NCBI GenBank assembly: GCA_029100545.1
Contig: JAQXPH010000021.1
Span: 10,613-74,612 of the forward strand
Source of the DNA: a bacterium
GTDB taxonomy: Bacteria; Bacillota_I; Bacilli_A; RF39; UBA660
Direction: 5' to 3'
Length of the DNA: 64,000 nt
The notes below the pieces were generated by a model. It was not told the origin of the DNA, ran no database searches, and saw nothing but the letters and a program-made list of their open reading frames with translations. How positions within the stretch are numbered: position 1 is the stretch's first letter; the number at the start of each line of letters is the position of its first letter. This document shows positions 26,805 to 64,000 of this stretch, one piece after another. The position numbers were made by a program, and so were the translations under genes.

Positions 26805-28364
26805 GTGAATATAGTGAAGATATTAATTAAAATTAAAAACAATAGATTGCAATTTATCAATAAGAAAAAATTAAATACTGAATATAAAAATATGCTTAAT
26901 ACAAATGTAATTAGTAATAATGAGTTAGTATTTAGTGATGAATATATATTATTAAATCAAAAAATTGTTATAACATTTTTAAACGAGCTTATTAAAACAT
27001 ATTCAATAAATACCTTATCTTTTCAAAATATTGAAGTATTTACAATAATTTATAAATTAATATCAAGAATTAAAATTATTGATTCAATTTATATAGATTC
27101 TGATGAAGTAATGACATATAAATTATGTGAAAAAATAAGTAAATTAAATAATATTAAATATATTAGTTTCGCATATATACCAGCTTATATGTTTGAAATG
27201 CTTGATAAAAATGGTATTATTCCTGAATCAAGAAATGAAATATTGTTTACATCTAATTTTATGGAAACTAATGATTTAAAAACATACTCTGCTATTTTCT
27301 ATAAAAATAGTATTCTATTGGAATTCCCATTATCAAATGAAGATATTGAAGATTTTACTACATTTTGTGATATAAATAGACATTTAAAAATTATTCATGT
27401 TAATAAAATTAATAAATATTTTCTAGAACTTGTACTTAATACTTTAATTAATAATAAACAAAAAAACATTAAAATTATCTTACATGGAGATGAACATGAT
27501 TCACAAGTTATTGATTATCTTAAAAAAAATAATAAAGTAATTAAGAAAAAATATAAAATTTATTTTAAATTAAAATACTCTAAAAAATATATTGAAGAAA
27601 ACATTGCAAGTGAAACAAATAATACTATTCTTAGAACATGTGGTTTAATTATTTTTACAATCGTAATTTTTTCGTTTATTTATGTATTTTATGATAATTA
27701 TAAATCAATGATGAAAGTAAGTAAAATTCAAAATGAAGTTATAAAGTATATTAAGGCTTCAGATACTAAAGATATTGAAAATAATACTCTTTCAAATGGT
27801 CTTCCAATTAAAAATAATTACATTTATTCTTTAAAAGAAATAAATTCCGATGTTGTTGCTTGGCTTAAAGTTAATAATACAAATATTGACTATCCAATAG
27901 TTCAAACACTTGATAATGAATATTACCTTAAATATAATCTTTATCATGAAAAAGACGAAAATGGTTGGCTATTTATGGATTATGATAATGATACTATAAA
28001 AGTTGATGATAATATTATTATCTATGGACACAATAGATATTTAAATGGTGTTATGTTTGGAACACTTAATAAAACACTTTATAAAAATTGGTATACAAAC
28101 AAAGAAAATCAAATTATAAAATTTGATACTCTTTATGGTTCATACCAATATAAGGTATTCTCAATATATATTATTCCAACTACTAGTGATTATTTAGAAA
28201 CAAATTTTAATAATAATGAAGATAAAATAAAATTTTTAAATATGCTTATAGATAGAAGTATTTATGATTTTAATATTGAACTTGATGAAAACAGCAAAAT
28301 TATTACACTATCAACTTGTCAAAGTGATACAACTAGACTTGTTCTTCATGCAGTCTTAGTTTAA
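26805..28364 (+). CDS. srtB: class B sortase fused to a ~270-aa N-terminal cytoplasmic domain
   Basis: The C-terminal ~220 aa carry VAWLKVNNTNIDYPIVQ, IIIYGHNRY and ITLSTCQSD (TLxTC). The TM lies near residues 277-297. The N-terminal domain has an LRR-like periodicity. The start is uncertain (GTG 26805 or GTG 26814). Confidence 0.8.
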   Translation: MNIVKILIKIKNNRLQFINKKKLNTEYKNMLNTNVISNNELVFSDEYILLNQKIVITFLNELIKTYSINTLSFQNIEVFTIIYKLISRIKIIDSIYIDSDEVMTYKLCEKISKLNNIKYISFAYIPAYMFEMLDKNGIIPESRNEILFTSNFMETNDLKTYSAIFYKNSILLEFPLSNEDIEDFTTFCDINRHLKIIHVNKINKYFLELVLNTLINNKQKNIKIILHGDEHDSQVIDYLKKNNKVIKKKYKIYFKLKYSKKYIEENIASETNNTILRTCGLIIFTIVIFSFIYVFYDNYKSMMKVSKIQNEVIKYIKASDTKDIENNTLSNGLPIKNNYIYSLKEINSDVVAWLKVNNTNIDYPIVQTLDNEYYLKYNLYHEKDENGWLFMDYDNDTIKVDDNIIIYGHNRYLNGVMFGTLNKTLYKNWYTNKENQIIKFDTLYGSYQYKVFSIYIIPTTSDYLETNFNNNEDKIKFLNMLIDRSIYDFNIELDENSKIITLSTCQSDTTRLVLHAVLV

Positions 28365-49235: not shown

Positions 49236-49548
49236 TGTTGAAAGAGGCATTATAAAGTGGTCTCCTTTTAATTCAGTAGTATCTGGTAATGAAATGTTAA
49301 ATAGCATTGTAAAAGAAAAAAATAAAATAGCAATGCCTACTTTATCTGATGAGCAAAAAGAAGTTATAGAAAAAAAATTAATTTTAGCACTTTACAGTCA
49401 AAATATAGTTAATATTTATTATTTTCAAAACGGGAAAATTTTAAATATTAAATCAAATATAAAAAAAATAGACTCTACTTACCATAAAATCTATTTTCAA
49501 AATAAAGTTATCTTATTTGAACAAATAATTGAGATTAACCAACTATAA
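49228..49548 (+). CDS. YolD-like protein
   Basis: IKWSPFNSV motif, and it sits directly after a UmuC-like gene. The start is set at the ATG after TGGAGG. Confidence 0.7.
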   Translation: MHNVERGIIKWSPFNSVVSGNEMLNSIVKEKNKIAMPTLSDEQKEVIEKKLILALYSQNIVNIYYFQNGKILNIKSNIKKIDSTYHKIYFQNKVILFEQIIEINQL

Positions 49549-50398
49549 AAAATCTTGTAAATAAGAAAAATAAAATTAATGCAGTAACAAGTAACACAGC
49601 CACAGTACAAATTATTTTAACATTTTTACTAACTTTTGGTTTTTCGTCTTTGGAATTTCCAGCTTTCTCACCTTCTATAATTGGAGCTGATTCCATAACT
49701 GGTTCAGTTTGATTAATAATTGGTGTCTCAGTTGGAGTTTGCACTGGCTCAGCAGGCGTTTCAACTACAGGAGTTTGTACTGGTTCAGCAGGTGTTTCAA
49801 CAACTGGAGTTTGTACTGGCTCAGCAGGCATTTCAACAACAGGAGTTTGTACTGGTTCAACAGGCGCTTCAACAACTGGAGTTTGCACTGGTTCAGCAGG
49901 CGCTTCAACAACTGGAGTTTGCACTGGTTCAGCAGGAGTTTCAACTACAGGAGTTTGTACTGGCTCAGCAGGAGTTTCAACAACTGGAGTTTGCACTGGT
50001 TCAGCAGGAGTTTCAACTACAGGAGTTTGTACTGGCTCAGCAGGAGTTTCAACAACTGGAGCTTGTACTGGCTCAGCAGGCATTTCAACAACAGGAGTTT
50101 GCACTGGTTCAACAGGCGTTTCAACAACTGGAGTTTGTACTGGCTCAGCAGGCGTTTCAACAACAGGAGTTTGTACTGGCTCAACAGGTGCTTCAACAAC
50201 TGGAGTTTGCATTGGCTCAGCAGGTGCTTCAACTACAGGAGTTTCTACTTGTGCTATTGGCTCTTCAATAGTTTGATTAGCTTCAGGCATTTGAGGCATC
50301 TCAATTACTGGAGTTTGCACTTCATTATTATTTTCAACTTGCTCTTCTGAATTTTCAATTTTTGGTAACTCAATTTTTAAATCATTATTTTCTTCCAT
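49535..50398 (-). CDS. tail-anchored repeat protein, (TPVVE[TAM]P[AV]EPVQ) x14
   Basis: ORF track. No signal peptide. C-terminal TM IICTVAVLLVTALILFFLF. RBS AGAGGT and a TATAAT lie upstream. Confidence 0.75.
   Translation of the reverse strand: MEENNDLKIELPKIENSEEQVENNNEVQTPVIEMPQMPEANQTIEEPIAQVETPVVEAPAEPMQTPVVEAPVEPVQTPVVETPAEPVQTPVVETPVEPVQTPVVEMPAEPVQAPVVETPAEPVQTPVVETPAEPVQTPVVETPAEPVQTPVVETPAEPVQTPVVEAPAEPVQTPVVEAPVEPVQTPVVEMPAEPVQTPVVETPAEPVQTPVVETPAEPVQTPTETPIINQTEPVMESAPIIEGEKAGNSKDEKPKVSKNVKIICTVAVLLVTALILFFLFTRFFIVG
49733..50236. repeat. 14 head-to-tail copies of a 36-bp unit (in-frame coding tandem repeat)
   Basis: The + strand unit is approximately GGAGTTTGYACTGGYTCAGCAGGNGTTTCAACWACA, counted directly in the sequence. 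A partial 15th copy follows. Confidence 0.9.
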
Positions 50399-52263: not shown

Positions 52264-52902
52264 TTATAAAGTCAAAAATCTTTGCATTTTATCTAAACCT
52301 TTTTTTTCATATCTTGAAACCATTACTTGAGTCATAGATAATTTTCTTGCAACTTCACATTGAGTTAAATCTTCAAAATATCTAGACTTAATAATATTTC
52401 TTTCATCCTCTGAAAGCATTTCCAAACTTTCATCAATTAATATTTTATCATCAACCGAAACTTTTTCTTCACTTTTTATAGTATCATATAAACAAACATT
52501 TTCTTCACTATCAAGACTCATTATACTTTGACCTGCCATTACTGCTTCATAAATCTTTCCTTTATCTATTTCAAGGAAATTAGCAACATCATCATAACTT
52601 GGAACAATGCCACTATTTTGAGTAAGAGAAAGTCTTGTTTGTTCAATTAATTTATAAAGTTTTAAAATATCCTTATTTATTTTAAGAGGTCTATTATTAA
52701 CTAATAAATACATTTCTCCATAAATATAATTGTAAGCAAAACTTGTAAACTTAGCATTAAAACTTTCATCATATTGCTTATAAGCTTTTAAAAGACCTAG
52801 AACTCCTGCTTGAAATAAATCTTCCTTAGGATAACCATAAAATTTTTTAGCAATATCATAAATAAGGCCAGCATTTTGATTAATAATTTCTTCTTTATTC
52901 AT
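52264..52902 (-). CDS. sigF: sporulation sigma factor SigF-like (SigB/F/G group)
   Basis: Region 2 DLFQAGVLGLLKAYKQYD...FTSFAYNYIYGEM. Region 4 QCEVARKLSMTQVMVSRYEKKGL. Located between spoIIAA and spoVAC. The ATG at 52902 is preferred over the TTG at 52914. Confidence 0.8.
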   Translation of the reverse strand: MNKEEIINQNAGLIYDIAKKFYGYPKEDLFQAGVLGLLKAYKQYDESFNAKFTSFAYNYIYGEMYLLVNNRPLKINKDILKLYKLIEQTRLSLTQNSGIVPSYDDVANFLEIDKGKIYEAVMAGQSIMSLDSEENVCLYDTIKSEEKVSVDDKILIDESLEMLSEDERNIIKSRYFEDLTQCEVARKLSMTQVMVSRYEKKGLDKMQRFLTL

Positions 52903-52903
52903 A

Positions 52904-53236
52904 TTAAACCTCAATAGTTTTTAATGCTGTAAGTTCATTATCAAGTTTCTTTATATGTAATTTATGTAATTTTTTATTTAAATATTTATTTACTTCACAT
53001 ATGTACATAATGCCCTTATTATTTTTTATTGCAAATTTAGTATTTAATAATGCATCTAATCCATTATCATCAATATCATCAAGATAATAAAAATTATAAA
53101 CTAAATATTTTATTTTATGTTTTAGTAATACAGGAACTAAATAATTATTAACTTTGTAAGATGTAGAACGATTTAATACACCATCAAGTCTTACAAAAAG
53201 TATTCCTTTATCATATTCTAAATTCATTTTTAACAT
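52904..53236 (-). CDS. spoIIAA: STAS-domain anti-anti-sigma factor SpoIIAA-like, with Asp at the phospho-serine position
   Basis: ILFVRLDGVLNRSTSYKVNNYL...LVYNFYYLDDIDDNGLDALL aligns by eye with SpoIIAA VLNLEDLSFMDSSGLGVIL. The start is set after AAAGGAAAA. Confidence 0.65.
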   Translation of the reverse strand: MLKMNLEYDKGILFVRLDGVLNRSTSYKVNNYLVPVLLKHKIKYLVYNFYYLDDIDDNGLDALLNTKFAIKNNKGIMYICEVNKYLNKKLHKLHIKKLDNELTALKTIEV

Positions 53237-53293
53237 ATTATATTTTCCTTTTCTATAAATAATATAGTTCATTTTTATTTAAGTTTAAACAAC

Positions 53294-58175: not shown

Positions 58176-58328
58176 TCAGTACTTCAATTTTTTCTTCAAA
58201 TCTGTCCAATACCTTTTAGGTATATTACTTTCTGTTAATGCACTAATAACATCAACTACACTAAAATAGTAATCTTCTTTTTCACTATCCAAAATACTTT
58301 GTATTTTCAAATAAATTTGTAATAGTAT
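58176..58328 (-). pseudogene. fragment of a Bro-N/KilA-N-type (phage antirepressor-like) DNA-binding protein gene
   Basis: An open frame without an ATG reads ...IQSILDSEKEDYYFSVVDVISALTESNIPKRYWTDLKKKLKY*. The YFSVVDVI..LT...NP..YW..LK..L pattern belongs to longer proteins, so this copy is truncated. Confidence 0.4.
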
Positions 58329-58469
58329 CTATTTTATTTCCTTTCAAAATTCTACCTTTTTTTTGTTATTTTTTGTACTAAGGCGTTATGTGTTATTACC
58401 TTAGCTTACTCATATTGCTACAAGTCTTCCCCTTTCATTCCACGTACTATGCGAGGTAGGCTCTAATAT

Positions 58470-59294
58470 TTATTTCCAAACAAGATTATATCTTAAATTT
58501 CTTAAAAATAAATCCCATATATTTGCTTTTTTAACATCTTCTTTTACTGTTATATCTACTTCATTAATTATTTTATTATCTTCATTTAATATTTGTACTT
58601 TTCCTATTACATTTCCTTTTTTTACTGGAGCAACTATTTTTTCTATATCTATTTTAAAATTATATTTACTTACTTTATCGTTTACATTTAAAAGTTCTAT
58701 TGCATCATTTACAAGTACTACATCTACATATTCTTTTTTACCTTTTTCTACTTTAACTTTTCCTAATACTTCTTTTTTATCTTTTATTAAATTTACTTTA
58801 TATGTATTAAATCCATAATTTAAAAGTTTTACTGTATCTTGACTTCTTTTTTCAATTGATTCTTCTCCCATTACAACACTTATTAATCTTAAATTATTTT
58901 TCTTCGCTGTTGCGGTTAAACAATAACCTGCTTTTGCTGTATATCCTGTTTTAAGTCCATCTACTCCATCATAAAATCTTACCAGTTTATTTGTATTAAC
59001 AAGCCATATTTGTGAACCATCAGGTTTTTGTAAATATTCTTCATAAACTTTTGTATAATCTAATATTTTTTCATATTTTAAAAGTTCTTTTGCCATAATA
59101 CCCATATCATAACTTGAAGAATAATGATTTTCATCATCAAGGCCATGAACGTTGACAAAATGTGTATTTTTTAGATTTAATTTCTCTGCTCTTTTATTCA
59201 TCGCTTCAATAAAAGATTCTTTAGATCCATAAGTTTTTTCTGCAAGAGCAACTACTGCATCTATCGCTGTTACTAAAAAGCAGTAAAAAAGAGT
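58470..59294 (-). pseudogene. 3' two-thirds of a D-alanyl-D-alanine carboxypeptidase (PBP5/DacB/DacF-type) gene; the 5' part is absent
   Basis: ...DAVVALAEKTYGSKESFIEAMNKRAEKLNLKNTHFVNVHGL, KTG box GLKTGYTAKAG, and the C-terminal domain are present. The signal peptide and SxxK motif are absent, and the frame is closed by TAA codons at 59296-59304. Confidence 0.75.
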
Positions 59295-60906
59295 TTAAAT
59301 TTAAGCTGCTACCCGCACCAAGTATATTAAGTTTAAAATGTAACATTACTTTATGAACGTTATCATCTTCTAGTCTTTCAACATATATAGTATCTATTAT
59401 ACTTCCAAATATTCTAAATACTCCCTCATCATCAACTAAAATTATACTTTTTATTTTTTTATAAAAATTATCTATACTATCTTTATAATTATCTTCTTTT
59501 GAAACCAAAAAATAATCATTCTTTTTCTTTTCTAGAATATCTAAATCAAAATTATATTTTTCTCTTCCAATATTATATTCTTCACTATCTATTTCTTTTC
59601 TAGCTCTCATATTAATTAGTTCTGCCTTAGCACTTTTGATATCTTCTATTTTTTTATCTATATCATTTATTTCTTTAATATAATCTTTATTAACCATTGT
59701 TTCACTTATTACATCATATATTTCTTTTATAATTTCACTTTCTTTATTTAAGAAAATACTCGCCATTTTTTTAAATATATCTAGTAATTCTTCGTAATGA
59801 ATTATTGGTGTATTACAACCATTTACTTTTTCTTTACCATATTTTCTATAATTAGAACACCCCCAATATTTACTCATCAAACCTGTTCTTTTATTCTTAT
59901 AACCACCTTTTATAAAAGTTGCTCCATCATGATAACATTTAATCTTACCAGATAGAGCATATCTCATATCTGTTCTAGTATTTGTTTTGTGTTTATGAGA
60001 ATTCTTATCCAATATCTCATTGCATTTTTTCCATAGTTCTTCCGATACAATTGGTGGACAACTCTCATTATCTTTATATACAATCCATTCATCTGGCTTA
60101 AATCTTATTCTTTTTCTTGAATGATAATCAACAGTAGTTTCTTTATGAGCACAAAAATATCCTTTATATTTTGGATTTCTAATAATTCTTCCAATTACAG
60201 TTCCAGCAAGTGGTTTATTAGTTTTACTCTTTATATTATATTTATCAAATAAATAATGACCTAGTTTAGATGTTCCCATATATTCTTTACTATATTCATT
60301 AAAGATTAATCTTATTAGTTCTGCTTCTTCTTCTACTATCTCTAACTTACCTTTATTTTTTTTATAACCATAAAAATTATCATTACCAGGAACTACTCCT
60401 TTTTCAATACTTCTTTTATATCCAAATCTAATTCTTTCTGATAATTTTCTTATTTCATCTTGAGCAATAGATGACATAATAGTTAAACGAAGTTCCGAGT
60501 CTGAATCAAATGTGTTTATATTATCATTTAAGAAAAATACACCTACATTATTAAATAATAATTCTTGCGTGTATTTTATACTATCAACAGTATTTCTTGA
60601 AAATCTTGATATTTCTTTTGTTAGTATTAAATTAAATTTACCTTTTTTAGCATCATTAATCATTTTAAGAAAATTATCACGTTTATTTACACTAGTACCT
60701 GATATACCTTCATCTACATAACCAGGAACAAATGTCCAATTATCTTGTCTTTTTATATAATTTTCAAAATACATAACTTGATTTTCTAATGAATTCAATT
60801 GTTCTTCATGATCTGTTGACACACGAGCATAAAATGTAACACGAAGTGGTAGTTCAATAAGTTTTTTACCAGTAGCTAAAATATTTCTAATTTGATACAA
60901 ATTCAT
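59221..60906 (-). CDS. large serine recombinase
   Basis: Resolvase domain FYARVSTDHEEQLNSLENQ and SRFSRN, recombinase domain, Cys-rich zinc ribbon (KCYHDG...GCSNYRKYGKEKVNGC), coiled coil. The last ~30 codons run into dac-derived DNA. Confidence 0.9.
   Translation of the reverse strand: MNLYQIRNILATGKKLIELPLRVTFYARVSTDHEEQLNSLENQVMYFENYIKRQDNWTFVPGYVDEGISGTSVNKRDNFLKMINDAKKGKFNLILTKEISRFSRNTVDSIKYTQELLFNNVGVFFLNDNINTFDSDSELRLTIMSSIAQDEIRKLSERIRFGYKRSIEKGVVPGNDNFYGYKKNKGKLEIVEEEAELIRLIFNEYSKEYMGTSKLGHYLFDKYNIKSKTNKPLAGTVIGRIIRNPKYKGYFCAHKETTVDYHSRKRIRFKPDEWIVYKDNESCPPIVSEELWKKCNEILDKNSHKHKTNTRTDMRYALSGKIKCYHDGATFIKGGYKNKRTGLMSKYWGCSNYRKYGKEKVNGCNTPIIHYEELLDIFKKMASIFLNKESEIIKEIYDVISETMVNKDYIKEINDIDKKIEDIKSAKAELINMRARKEIDSEEYNIGREKYNFDLDILEKKKNDYFLVSKEDNYKDSIDNFYKKIKSIILVDDEGVFRIFGSIIDTIYVERLEDDNVHKVMLHFKLNILGAGSSLNLNSFLLLFSNSDRCSSCSCRKNLWI
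59294..59337. other. candidate att site (hybrid attL/attR) of the recombinase element
   Basis: Imperfect inverted repeat TTTAAATTTAA-22 nt-TTAAGTTTAAA (10/11 match) located exactly where dac homology ends. Confidence 0.35.
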
Positions 60907-60924
60907 AGTTCTTAATACCTCCTT

Positions 60925-61125
60925 CTAAATTGGAATTTTAACTATTATATTTTTTACATCTTTATCCTTTTCTTGTAATTTTTTTAGTTTATTAATATCT
61001 TCTTCCAACTTCTTGATAATACTACTTGTATTTGCAAAATAAATTAAACCTTTGCTACAAAGTTCATTCAGTAACTCTTTTTGTATCATTTTTTTTGCAA
61101 TTAGGGTCTCAGGATTATTATCCAA
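60925..61125 (-). CDS. small hypothetical protein upstream of the recombinase (66 aa, TTG start)
   Basis: GAGGAGGAG RBS. Helical and charged (LIAKKMIQKELLNELCSKGLIYF...). It could be a regulator or a directionality factor, but there is no family evidence. Confidence 0.45.
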   Translation of the reverse strand: MDNNPETLIAKKMIQKELLNELCSKGLIYFANTSSIIKKLEEDINKLKKLQEKDKDVKNIIVKIPI

Positions 61126-61162
61126 GTTTTCTCCTCCTCATTTAAACTTATTAGAATAAATG

Positions 61163-61190
61163 AAAAAAAGAACTCATAACTCAGAGTTCT
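61163..61190 (-). terminator. rho-independent terminator of the PfkB-SIS operon
   Basis: The minus strand reads AGAACTC-8 nt-GAGTTCT followed by T7. Confidence 0.65.
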
Positions 61191-61249
61191 ACAAATTAAT
61201 CTCATTTTTATATTTTAATACTTATATAAATGTTCTCCTAAATAATTGA

Positions 61250-63205
61250 TTATAAATCACCTTTATAAAAATATATTTTCATAGCGTTTTCAGAATAATT
61301 AGGTTTTGAAACATCAATGTTGAGAAACTTTCCAATATAATAAATGATAAATTGTGAAGCAATCAACAAATCAAATTCTGCCAAAATACCATCATAATTA
61401 CTTTCAATTATAACATTATTATCTCCCAAATATTTTAATAACTCTTGTTCATACTTTGTTGTTGATTTTTGCTTAAAATATATAGAAATAGAATTATTTA
61501 AGTTTTCATAATTAATAAACCTTCCATGCGAAAAATTCTTCTTTTCATGAATTATACAATTGAATATACCAGATTCAATAATTTTGCTTTCTAAATCATA
61601 ACAAGCTGTATCAGTATAATCACCACGAAACAAATTTAGTGTCCCATGTTCTTTTATATTTATTATTATATCTTTAGTTATTACACTTTCTATTTTTTCA
61701 TTCCAATAATTAATTGACTTTTTTATAAAATTTTCAATATTAATACTATAATTAGTTTTTTCAAGATAGTGTTTTAAGAAGATTACTGCTGGAGCAACTG
61801 CACCTTCAAATGATAAAAATCCACGTTCTTTACCTTTATTGGAAGAAGTTCTATAACTTAAAATATTCTTTTTTAGAATTCCTGTTTTTAATACAATATT
61901 TTGTAATTCTCCTTTAGTAACAATATATATTTTTTTCTTATCTAAATCTTTGACACTTGTAATAATATCGTTTGTTGTACCAGAGTATGAAAATAATACA
62001 ACTTTATTTATATTATTATTATTTCTATATAAAACATCTCTTGGATACATTGAATATGTATTGCATCCGTATAATAAATTTATAATTTTAGCGGAAAAAT
62101 ATGATCCAGCATATGAACCACCAGTTCCAATAAATAAACAATTATCATTTTCATTAAAAGAAATATCTTCAATTTTACTGCTTGCTGAAGAATTGACTGC
62201 ATTGATAATTCTTGTTTCGAGATTGTTAATATTTATATTACATCGTTTGATTTTTTTTCTTTCATTATATATGAAATTATTACAAGTACATTCATTATCT
62301 ATCTTTTTAACTTTAAATAGAGAATTAATGTGGCCCCTTGCTCCCATTTTGGAAACAACTTTAGCTGTTAGTTTGTTTGAGTTTTCATACCATTTTTCAA
62401 ACATATCTTGATCATAAACAAAATTATTTTTTATACAATCTTTTATTATGCTAGAGATAAACGCATCACCAGCGCCAGTAGAGTCTACAACTTTTCCTTT
62501 GCTTTTTAAGTTAAAATTGTATTCTTTTCCATCGCTAATAAAAGTAGCACCATTTTCTCCACGCGTAATAGTCATAAAATTTGGTTTTAAAATATTATAT
62601 AAATCTATATTAGTATTTAAATCTAATCTTTTTATTAAATATTTTGATACTCTTTCATTAAAATTAATAATTTCAAACTTGTTTTTTATCTTATCTATTA
62701 TTTCTTTATCAGACATATTTTCTAATTCAAAATATTGCCCTAAATCAATTATTTTTTTATTACGAGTTTTATCAATCAATATTTGATTTCTACTATTTAA
62801 ATTATCAAATACTAAAATATCATCATTATTAATTTTTTTTATAATATCATCTGTATCAATCAAACTATCTTCATACCACTTTTTATTATTACAAAAAGGG
62901 CATCTTTTTTTTGAAGTAAATGATAATTTATCTTCGTTATCAAAGTATGATACGTGAAAGCATCTTGTTCTCACATCATCTAAAACTACAATATTATTTG
63001 TATCAACATCCAATTTTTCAAGACTTTTAATTGCTATTTCACCTTGCATATCATTACCACATGTACCAAACACTGCAGTATTAATACCCATTTTTGCTAA
63101 ATTAGCAATGATATTGTGAGAAGTCATCCCACCATTTATTCCTAAAAACTTTTCGTTTTTATAATAATAATCTGTTACTAAATCACCTATACTAACTACT
63201 CTCAT
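61250..63205 (-). CDS. fusion protein: PfkB-family carbohydrate kinase (with a Cys-containing insert) plus a SIS phosphosugar-binding domain
   Basis: N-half INGGMTSHNIIANLAKMG, TRGENGATF, DSTGAGDAF. Insert RCPFCNNKKW. C-half LFIGTGGSYAGSYFSA, VVLFSYSGTTNDII. Confidence 0.8.
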   Translation of the reverse strand: MRVVSIGDLVTDYYYKNEKFLGINGGMTSHNIIANLAKMGINTAVFGTCGNDMQGEIAIKSLEKLDVDTNNIVVLDDVRTRCFHVSYFDNEDKLSFTSKKRCPFCNNKKWYEDSLIDTDDIIKKINNDDILVFDNLNSRNQILIDKTRNKKIIDLGQYFELENMSDKEIIDKIKNKFEIINFNERVSKYLIKRLDLNTNIDLYNILKPNFMTITRGENGATFISDGKEYNFNLKSKGKVVDSTGAGDAFISSIIKDCIKNNFVYDQDMFEKWYENSNKLTAKVVSKMGARGHINSLFKVKKIDNECTCNNFIYNERKKIKRCNININNLETRIINAVNSSASSKIEDISFNENDNCLFIGTGGSYAGSYFSAKIINLLYGCNTYSMYPRDVLYRNNNNINKVVLFSYSGTTNDIITSVKDLDKKKIYIVTKGELQNIVLKTGILKKNILSYRTSSNKGKERGFLSFEGAVAPAVIFLKHYLEKTNYSINIENFIKKSINYWNEKIESVITKDIIINIKEHGTLNLFRGDYTDTACYDLESKIIESGIFNCIIHEKKNFSHGRFINYENLNNSISIYFKQKSTTKYEQELLKYLGDNNVIIESNYDGILAEFDLLIASQFIIYYIGKFLNIDVSKPNYSENAMKIYFYKGDL

Positions 63206-64000
63206 TTTAATAATCTCCTTTGTTTGCTTTTATTATCACAAAAATCTTTTAAATTACCGCCATTTTTATATTGTTCAATAATAGGAATTAAATTATTTGT
63301 TAAATATATCAATTCGTCTTGAAATCTTTTTGCTTTTTCGGTTAAAGGTTTATTAAAGTAATTTTCTTTAATCCACATATCTACTTCATTTATCCAAACC
63401 GTTATTAGTGAAAGAAAAATATCATTATCTTGTATACTAAGTTCTTTATCATATCCTAATATAAAAGAATTCATCTTATTATAATTAATACAATCATACT
63501 CAAAACAATATGACATAATAATTCTTCCAACATCAAGAAGTGGTGAATTTACTCTAACTAATTCAAAATCTAAAATATGTGGAATTTCACCATCAAAAAG
63601 AATATTGTCATCAGCAAAATCACCGTGGGTTACAGCAATTGGTATTTCATTAATTATGCTTTTATCTTTTAAGCATCTTAATCCTTTGCCTTGTACTGAT
63701 AATAACTCTAAGTATTCATCACTTACTTCACCTATTTTATTAGATATTTTATTTTGATAGTTATTAAATAATTTTTCAATGGATGGAAGTTTTAAATATT
63801 CACCAATATATTTTGAACTATCAACATTTTTAAAAAGCAAATGCATTTTTGCACATTCTTGTCCTAATTTATGCAATTGCTCATTACTAATATATTCTCT
63901 AGGAACATATATACCACTTATGTAATCAATAATAGCAACTCTATATCCATTATATACAAATACCAATTTATTATCGTGTGTTAAATTAATCTTTTCACAA
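63202..64000 (-). CDS. APH/CotS-type phosphotransferase (kinase fold), N-terminus beyond the window edge
   Basis: HGDFADDNILFD (Brenner motif) and ILDFELV. The frame stays open upstream of the listed TTG to position 64000 (…CEKINLTHDNKLVFVYNGY). Its stop overlaps the PfkB-SIS ATG (ATGA). Confidence 0.75.
   Translation of the reverse strand, partial: CEKINLTHDNKLVFVYNGYRVAIIDYISGIYVPREYISNEQLHKLGQECAKMHLLFKNVDSSKYIGEYLKLPSIEKLFNNYQNKISNKIGEVSDEYLELLSVQGKGLRCLKDKSIINEIPIAVTHGDFADDNILFDGEIPHILDFELVRVNSPLLDVGRIIMSYCFEYDCINYNKMNSFILGYDKELSIQDNDIFLSLITVWINEVDMWIKENYFNKPLTEKAKRFQDELIYLTNNLIPIIEQYKNGGNLKDFCDNKSKQRRLLK

Follow-up and report, generated by a model that had tools for sequence, protein, structure and literature searches.

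Small serine-recombinase cassettes split a D,D-carboxypeptidase gene at one conserved site in uncultured gut Bacilli

The locus described here lies in a 64,000-nucleotide stretch of DNA from contig JAQXPH010000021.1 (assembly GCA_029100545.1; this whole stretch is hereafter the window), in which the D,D-carboxypeptidase gene dac is interrupted by a cassette encoding a large serine recombinase (LSR). The G+C content of the window is very low, about 23%. A minus-strand frame at 58470-59294 matches the Pfam family Peptidase_S11 over profile positions 104-238 of 239, together with PBP5_C; because the match starts only at position 104, the frame has neither a signal peptide nor the SxxK active-site motif, and it retains the DAVVALAE segment, the KTG box and the C-terminal domain. 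Stop codons at 59295-59297 and 59301-59303 bound it upstream. A tblastn search of the window with an intact 379-aa homologue found only residues 112-379, at 59276-58473, and over these residues the intact protein P0003 is 98% identical to the window's Dac. An initial annotation, made from the sequence alone, had already described a dac frame that lacks its signal peptide and SxxK motif and is closed by stop codons, and the Pfam and tblastn results agree with it. It had also proposed comparison with relatives that carry an uninterrupted dac; such relatives exist, as intact 379-aa homologues (P0001-P0025) on about 50 metagenomic contigs at 94-98% identity. Truncated forms of 243 or 246 aa identical to the window's (P0026-P0030) occur on 8 contigs and are rarer than the intact form. 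Matches in PDB and NCBIfam do not tell dacB from dacF for the window's Dac.

The insertion falls within the dac coding sequence and separates the codons for Asn116 and Asp117 in the SxN-D motif. When the empty site (attB, in locus L001) is compared with the two junctions of a complete element (attL and attR, in L005), the dinucleotide GA is the only sequence common to all, and the same holds in L049. This core supplies the opening two bases of the codon for Asp117 in S-A-N-D. In the window, GA on the minus strand corresponds to TC at plus-strand 59260-59261, and homology to the intact allele L002 ends at 59261. The attB site is the conserved S-A-N-D-A-V-V-A-L-A-E coding sequence of dac; the left (P) arm of attP encodes a conserved LSR peptide, FLLLFSNxD, and has only ...CAGC.A..GA in common with attB. 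Rebuilt from relatives, attP reads ACTGCTTTTTAGTAACAnCGAnA-GA-TGTGGTAGTnnCAAnAAAGCAGT, with outer inverted repeats ACTGCTTT / AAAGCAGT. The sites therefore have the anatomy expected for serine integrases, namely a 2-bp crossover and imperfect inverted-repeat arms without long direct repeats, and the same attR junction recurs at about 48 loci.

The initial annotation had instead placed the attachment site at an imperfect inverted repeat with arms at 59294-59304 and 59327-59337. This repeat lies at least 33 bp inside the element, within the LSR coding sequence (HFKLNI...LNLN), and so is not the core of an attachment site. Its arms are complementary at 10 of 11 positions, a stretch of 400 bp contains seven such repeats with this one included, and its arm motif occurs four times in the window against 5.85 expected, which is chance level. 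The LSR gene does end in dac-derived DNA, as had been proposed, although this applies only to its last 13 codons and stop rather than to some 30 codons; the tail reads ...GAGSSLNLNSFLLLFSNSDRCSSCSCRKNLWI. A suggested likeness between LLLFSNSD in that tail and the LLLxSxND region of Dac proteins was not borne out, since Dac here reads VAMASAND and the peptide is encoded by the P arm of attP. We regard the anatomy of integration, and the membership of this element in the family described below, as close to certain.

The recombinase itself (MDD5865532.1, with the dac fragment as MDD5865531.1, on a 76,762-nt contig) was correctly recognized at the outset as a 561-aa LSR. It has all three expected domains (PF00239, E 3.5e-29; PF07508, E 1.3e-17; PF13408, E 6.2e-09) and a YARVST catalytic motif, and among PHROGs it matches the integrase family phrog_95 (E 6.9e-110). 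Coordinates of this and the other features of the locus are collected in Table 1.

Table 1. Features of the interrupted dac locus in the window. The extent of attR (+/-25 bp around the core) is an assumption from typical LSR sites.
Feature	Position	Strand	Description	Basis
dac 3' fragment (Asp117 to Lys379 + stop)	58470..59261	-	DAVVALAE, KTG, PBP5_C; no start, signal peptide or SxxK	Pfam, tblastn, homology end vs L002
LSR, 561 aa, MDD5865532.1	59221..60906	-	last 13 codons + stop in dac DNA; Resolvase + Recombinase + Zn_ribbon_recom	
attR	59236..59285	-	core 59260-59261; B' arm (dac side) <=59259; P arm (element side, ACTGCTTTTTAGTAACAGCGATA) >=59262	
Inverted repeat of the initial annotation	59294..59337	.	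within LSR coding sequence; not attachment site	
orf66, 66 aa, TTG start	60925..61125	-	18 nt upstream of LSR	
Terminator-like hairpin	61160..61190	-	AGAACTC-N8-GAGTTCT + T-run; just upstream of orf66	
Cargo: PfkB-type sugar kinase fused to SIS-like isomerase region, 651 aa	61250..63205	-		Pfam PfkB
Cargo: APH-family kinase	63202..64000	-	5' end past window; 350 aa in L041	Pfam APH

No 5' dac fragment is detectable in the window by tblastn. A 519-aa open reading frame (ORF) at 26805-28364 was considered as a flank of the missing 5' part and rejected; it has the same length as the gene flanking intact dac, but is unrelated to it. A 134-aa 5' fragment, MDD5865085.1, is found on a separate 61,601-nt contig of the same NCBI accession series, and given that common series it presumably comes from the same metagenome-assembled genome as the window. 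Logan contigs with the exact MDD5865085.1 protein show a canonical attL (...GCAAAT-GA-TGTGGTAGTATCAATAAAGCAGT). In the near-identical strain represented by L005, a single contig carries the 134-aa 5' fragment, a 6,575-bp element with a 97%-identical LSR at its end, and the 3' fragment, and core-to-core deletion in silico yields a protein identical at 379 of 379 residues to the uninterrupted P0003. In-silico excision at GA in 11 further species, each with both halves on one contig, likewise gives ORFs of 379-387 aa with SxxK, SxND and KTG. The 5' half that the initial annotation proposed to look for on the same replicon is thus found on the same contig in L005 and in the same accession series for the window, though not in the window itself, and its expectation that the joined halves would encode an intact protein with SxxK, SxN and KTG agrees with these reconstructions. 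Neither the LSR nor P0026 had an exact match in the contig index, a predicted 125-aa chimeric 5' fragment was absent from the collection, and among the places listed no sample held both attB and attL. A scan for the attP pattern had as its sole match a tandem junction in L088 and L089.

Some strains carry a duplicate of a 143-bp piece of the dac C-terminal region (window 58854-58996) several kilobases downstream of dac. The duplicates lie at L001:14051-14577, L005:12462-12604 and L006:4414-4556, and are annotated as a 133-aa PBP5_C ORF; the strains concerned carry a variable block of about 5 kb (TyrS and others) that is missing from the window. The duplicated piece may be the scar of an earlier rearrangement at the locus.

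Upstream of the LSR, an ORF of 64-68 aa (orf66) is present at a distance of about 18 nt in every member of the family (52 dac-type loci), including a minimal element of 2,055 bp that consists of orf66 and the LSR only. It has 209 homologues, no match to a Pfam, NCBIfam or PHROG family, and no similarity to the LSR. An AlphaFold (AF2) model predicts a helical hairpin (predicted local distance difference test, pLDDT, 86); its top Foldseek matches are LSR coiled-coil domains (5uae, 4kis) at a non-significant E of about 1.2, and generic helical hairpins score alike. The start codon of orf66 is mostly TTG, despite a strong GAGGAGG ribosome-binding site. The hairpin just upstream of orf66 is the sole terminator-like site in 58300-61400, where 0.5 would be expected. 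The minimal element of 2,055 bp has, directly after the 5' dac fragment, a strong terminator-like hairpin that is bidirectional (CCAAAAAAACTCCACAGTGGAGTTTTTTTGG; L045:9587-9794) and would stop read-through from the dac promoter into the recombination unit. A scan for sigma-70 promoters around the junction found nothing above shuffled sequences, and an Rfam scan returned only tRNAs.

Beyond this core, the cassettes differ in what they carry. Window positions 59239-64000 are collinear, at 95.4% identity, with 6907-11674 of L041, a locus from another species whose Dac is only 45% identical to the window's. Because the L041 copy is complete at 9,621 bp, the window element must run past position 64000; if it has the same length, its far end would lie about 4.9 kb beyond that point, and the close identity to this copy suggests that the whole element is probably about 9.6 kb long. 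The 651-aa cargo protein falls within this match, and has partial NCBIfam matches to kinases and phosphosugar isomerases. Cargo in L041 and the window comprises a WYL regulator, a DHH phosphoesterase, an APH-like kinase and the PfkB-SIS fusion; in L005 it comprises GNAT acetyltransferases, a deaminase-like protein and an ASCH protein, and in L088 a 2,199-aa helicase and a pVip-like radical SAM protein. Searches for known defence systems among the cargo returned only the WYL regulator, the pVip-like protein and weak helicase matches.

The same architecture is widespread. LSR homologues at 73-91% identity are abundant, and the dac sequence for NDAxxALAE, translated in the +1 frame, gives their variable Cys/Ser-rich tails. 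A scan of GTDB species representatives gave 80 loci. About 48 species have an LSR of at least 57% identity that adjoins a dac 3' fragment beginning at residue ~113-117, and the Dac proteins of these hosts are 29-60% identical to the window's. Complete elements, in the 11 species with both halves on one contig, measure 2,055-10,277 bp. All this concerns uncultured Bacilli of the gut, which go under the labels Mollicutes, Tenericutes or Erysipelotrichaceae; Ca. Onthousia is among these hosts, and complete chromosomes measure 1.3-1.5 Mb. The elements thus form a family with a fixed orf66-LSR-attP core and variable cargo, inserted at one site in about 48 species, and this family moves horizontally between species; it has apparently not been described so far.

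Large serine recombinases also occupy other sites. A distant subgroup of the window's LSR family (57-65% identity) splits another dac paralogue, which is followed by overlapping spmA- and spmB-like genes (Pfam Gate); such loci are L057:1809-5535, L055 and L091:5355-8323. The order dac-spmA-spmB is the arrangement of the mother-cell dacB operon. Yet another dac type (L061) is likewise restored by joining its halves. In at least five species and one IMG/VR contig, dac is cut into three pieces, because a second LSR family (415-489 aa), unrelated to the first, has inserted right behind the conserved WLVNTNK, some 10 residues ahead of KTG; the excision join restores NTNK|LVRF...KTG. Loci with this same site are L013:11957-13771, L016:4326-13026, L024, L028, L039 and L090, and the smallest element of the family, about 1.8 kb, consists of the LSR and a 102-aa ORF. 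A sister family of the window's LSR (43-46% identity; L062-L087) is widespread in these hosts and does not adjoin dac. Some genomes, such as OZ007025.1 with L070 (sister family) and L040, carry both, and other conserved insertion targets therefore probably exist.

The window contains several host sporulation genes, including those for SpoVAD (E 6.5e-98), SpoVAC, a SigF-like sigma factor and a GerM-like protein, and five genes separate dac from the spoIIAA-like, sigF-like and spoVA genes. We infer a sporulation role for the interrupted dac. Of 14 species, 6 have a sigma-E-type pattern, [TG][ACT]ATA..-N13-15-CATA...T, in the same place upstream of dac, and 7 have it in a loose form, against a control frequency of 0.5% per 70 nt; patterns for sigma-F, sigma-G and sigma-K were found upstream of dac in none of the 14. 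By inspection, most of the 14 upstream regions have a CATA -10 element near the ribosome-binding site. The motif, in the form ZHATAxx-N13/14-CATAnnnT at about -60 to -20 from the start, occurs at L012, L022, L044, L045, L047, L049 and L051.

Two further observations concern the neighbourhood of these genes. At window 52264-53272, and also in L002, L003, L022 and L031, a spoIIAA-like STAS gene is followed directly by the SigF-like gene, with no spoIIAB between them; both genes score well under the NCBIfam equivalog cut-offs, and this lineage may have an unusual sigma-F control module. Adjoining the spoVA genes, a minus-strand ORF at 49535-50398 without a Pfam match encodes a protein of 12-residue repeats, with a 36-bp unit repeated 14.3 times (87% matches) at 49734-50249.

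The interrupted gene also appears to be well maintained. Among 44 junction-linked dac 3' fragments, 34 are full length (at least 250 aa), seven are cut only by an element of the second LSR family, two run off their contigs, and the remaining one (L056), at 249 aa, is one residue below the cut-off; no frameshift or nonsense mutation was found in the 42 that could be assessed. Between interrupted relatives, the ratio of non-synonymous to synonymous substitution (omega) for dac is 0.02-0.09, and in L050 and L051 the element and dac are collinear at 92%, which fits co-inheritance. Intact fragments and low omega favour a continued function of dac by way of excision, although the insertions may instead be recent.

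Several explanations of the interruption can be weighed against one another. That dac was simply truncated here, is a pseudogene or was broken by the assembly, so that no 5' half exists and no gene can be recovered, is scarcely credible: the window does lack a 5' fragment and its exact LSR is missing from the contig index, but the same junction recurs in many independent assemblies, a 5' fragment with a matching attL is present in Logan contigs as well as on the 61.6-kb contig that shares the accession series, and both halves stand on one contig in L005 and join perfectly. Disruption of dac by a prophage or defective prophage, which the initial annotation had put forward as its alternative, is highly improbable as well. 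The match to phrog_95 and the viral binning of two family members in IMG/VR could be read in this way; however, complete elements are only 2-10 kb long, Pfam and PHROGs searches, covering the cargo in the window and the whole elements of L041 and L005, detect no phage morphogenesis genes (capsid, tail, terminase), lysis genes or replication genes, no relative above 60% identity is present in 50,697 phage or 72,556 plasmid records, and the IMG/VR contigs are chromosomal fragments bearing dac pieces.

This leaves two readings of greater weight. We tentatively lean towards developmental excision, similar to that of skin and gin, in which dac would be rebuilt at sporulation, while holding it just short of what could be called probable. 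At integration, the LSR joined attP, which overlaps the 3' end of its own gene, with attB in dac, strands being exchanged at GA. In this model, the LSR, with orf66 acting as a recombination directionality factor (RDF), would later excise the cassette precisely and leave an intact dac. Excision would be timed to sporulation and would most plausibly take place in the mother cell; the spore would retain the integrated copy and the terminal cell would make functional Dac. The outcome would be a gene-intervening element of the skin/gin type with a new target gene. The studied LSR elements within sporulation genes all excise at sporulation or in a growth-phase-dependent manner (PMC4191935, PMC5595907, PMC10747680). 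It is also a real possibility, if one that we would sooner doubt than assert, that these are mobile cassettes without any developmental role, for which the conserved SxN-coding sequence of dac serves as a broad-host-range landing site and safe harbour. Loss of dac would then be cheap, as it is for dacF in B. subtilis, excision would be sporadic and would occur during transfer, and recent insertions would look intact.

Several observations weigh against developmental excision, and many of them fit a safe harbour. The cassettes are active, horizontally spreading mobile elements: LSR and Dac divergence are uncorrelated (Spearman -0.02, 465 pairs), LSR genes can be 100% identical (synonymous divergence, dS, 0.00) in hosts whose dac genes are synonymously saturated (dS >1), and tandem double cassettes exist, their accretion having produced an attP-like hybrid junction. 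Variable, mosaic cargo, the presence of a second, unrelated LSR family in the same gene, and a best NCBIfam match of the LSR to CcrB, the SCC cassette recombinase, speak for a safe harbour. Within the window's species only about 8 contigs have the split form and about 50 the intact one, so that recent insertion is another possible reason why no copy has decayed. By synteny, dac is the positional orthologue of dacF, standing directly upstream of the spoIIAA-like, sigF-like and spoVA genes in L022, L031, L027, L052 and L008. In B. subtilis, dacF is expressed in the forespore, from the dacF-spoIIA operon; excision of a dacF-type element in that compartment would cure the germ line of the element. 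The initial annotation had itself cautioned that developmental excision is less expected if the gene is dacF-like. Synteny and promoter type thus disagree on the compartment, since the gene has the position of dacF yet, in relatives, a sigma-E-type motif and none for sigma-F or sigma-G. Further, dac has no such motif ahead of it in the species of the window itself, and across 39 loci no consensus for sigma-E, -K, -F or -G precedes orf66 or the LSR. The hairpin before orf66 keeps its structure and place even in distant elements, where the sequence of the stem is another, and would shield the orf66-LSR module from cargo transcription. Orf66 is a candidate RDF or regulator by its position and size only, and no free circular attP was found in JGI metagenomes or IMG/VR, which hold little of this lineage.

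A safe harbour is harder to reconcile with the absence of frameshift or nonsense mutations from all 42 assessable fragments, with strong purifying selection on dac in L050 and L051, where the element appears to be co-inherited, and with cargo-free elements of 2-3 kb, which offer their host only a recombination unit. The sigma-E-type promoters on dac in relatives also speak for developmental excision, as do the dacB-like order dac-spmA-spmB at the more distant LSR subgroup, a hint of the mother cell, and the fact that all matches so far lie in sporulation-linked dac genes, next to spoIIA or spmAB. A more elaborate version of developmental excision, which we consider unlikely as a whole, would join these strands: dac would be rebuilt developmentally in small-genome gut Bacilli after being cut at SxN and WLVNTNK by two unrelated, minimal families of recombinase plus small ORF; excision in the dying mother cell, with circles freed on lysis, would couple sporulation to spread between species, in a germline/soma strategy like that of the heterocyst nif elements; and the helical-hairpin RDF would mimic the coiled-coil of the integrase.

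The dac elements resemble several known systems without coinciding with any of them. The gin element in gerE of Bacillus cereus (GirC LSR and GirX RDF; PMC5595907) is likewise not a prophage; it interrupts the coding sequence of a sporulation gene, as dac putatively is, it has an LSR and a small accessory protein, and its precise excision rebuilds the gene, as in-silico excision does for dac. However, gin is 28.6 kb long, has three recombinases, and lies in a proven mother-cell gene with proven sporulation-timed excision; the dac elements are 2-10 kb long, have one LSR and a different target, and their attachment site overlaps the end of the LSR gene. In Bacillus subtilis, skin in sigK (SpoIVCA and Skr) and SPbeta in spsM (SprA and SprB) also split sporulation genes by means of an LSR and are polymorphic among strains in their presence (PMC4191935, PMC6957869), and the order orf66-LSR-attR is that of rdf-int-attR in the sprB-sprA unit of SPbeta, beside the 3' gene fragment (PMC6957869). 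Unlike the dac elements, these are prophages or defective prophages, 48-134 kb long, whose RDF is expressed from sigma-E/K promoters; the dac elements have no phage genes and no recognizable sporulation promoter on their recombination unit, and their host gene is a positional dacF orthologue.

Likeness extends to systems outside Bacillus sporulation. The staphylococcal cassette chromosome elements (SCCmec, with CcrA/B/C LSRs) are also small, non-conjugative and non-phage, with variable cargo, tandem arrays at one site and spread between species. They differ in inserting at the extreme 3' end of rlmH without inactivating it, in usually having two Ccr proteins, and in having no link to sporulation. 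CcrB is the best NCBIfam match of the window's LSR (E 2e-32), with 112.5 bits against a cut-off of 900; an SCC-type Ccr cassette was rejected on this score, far under the cut-off, and on its target, dac rather than rlmH. In L088:9784-16482, and also in L089, two orf66-LSR cassettes stand in tandem upstream of a single dac 3' fragment; the first LSR (P0165) terminates in the attP-like hybrid junction, and this accretion resembles SCC composite elements. The second-best NCBIfam match of the LSR is XisF (E 6e-30), the recombinase of the fdxN element. Such cyanobacterial heterocyst elements (PMC4874684, PMC6957869) share with the dac elements a serine recombinase, some near cargo-free members and, if dac is a mother-cell gene, targets in genes needed only in a terminal cell, and several of them may interrupt one gene. 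They belong to another phylum, developmental programme and set of target genes, and their excision has been demonstrated experimentally.

In the parts of the literature on such elements covered here (PMC4191935, PMC5595907, PMC10747680, PMC6957869), dac is not named as an interrupted sporulation gene, and none of the titles that literature searches brought up deals with it. If developmental excision is the true reading, dac, which encodes a peptidoglycan-remodelling enzyme, would join sigK, spsM, spoVFB, spoVR, gerE and yabG among the split sporulation genes. The 2-kb elements of orf66 and LSR are among the smallest natural integrase units, with a conserved protein motif as attB, and could provide a compact, broadly targetable serine-integrase/RDF pair for genome engineering, the role of orf66 as RDF being a candidate one. 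A gene in the dacF position with a sigma-E-type promoter suggests, in addition, that synteny alone may mis-assign the compartment in distant Firmicutes. The dac elements offer a test case for distinguishing domesticated switches from selfish cassettes, in a phenomenon that spans dozens of uncultured gut species, where sporulation drives transmission.

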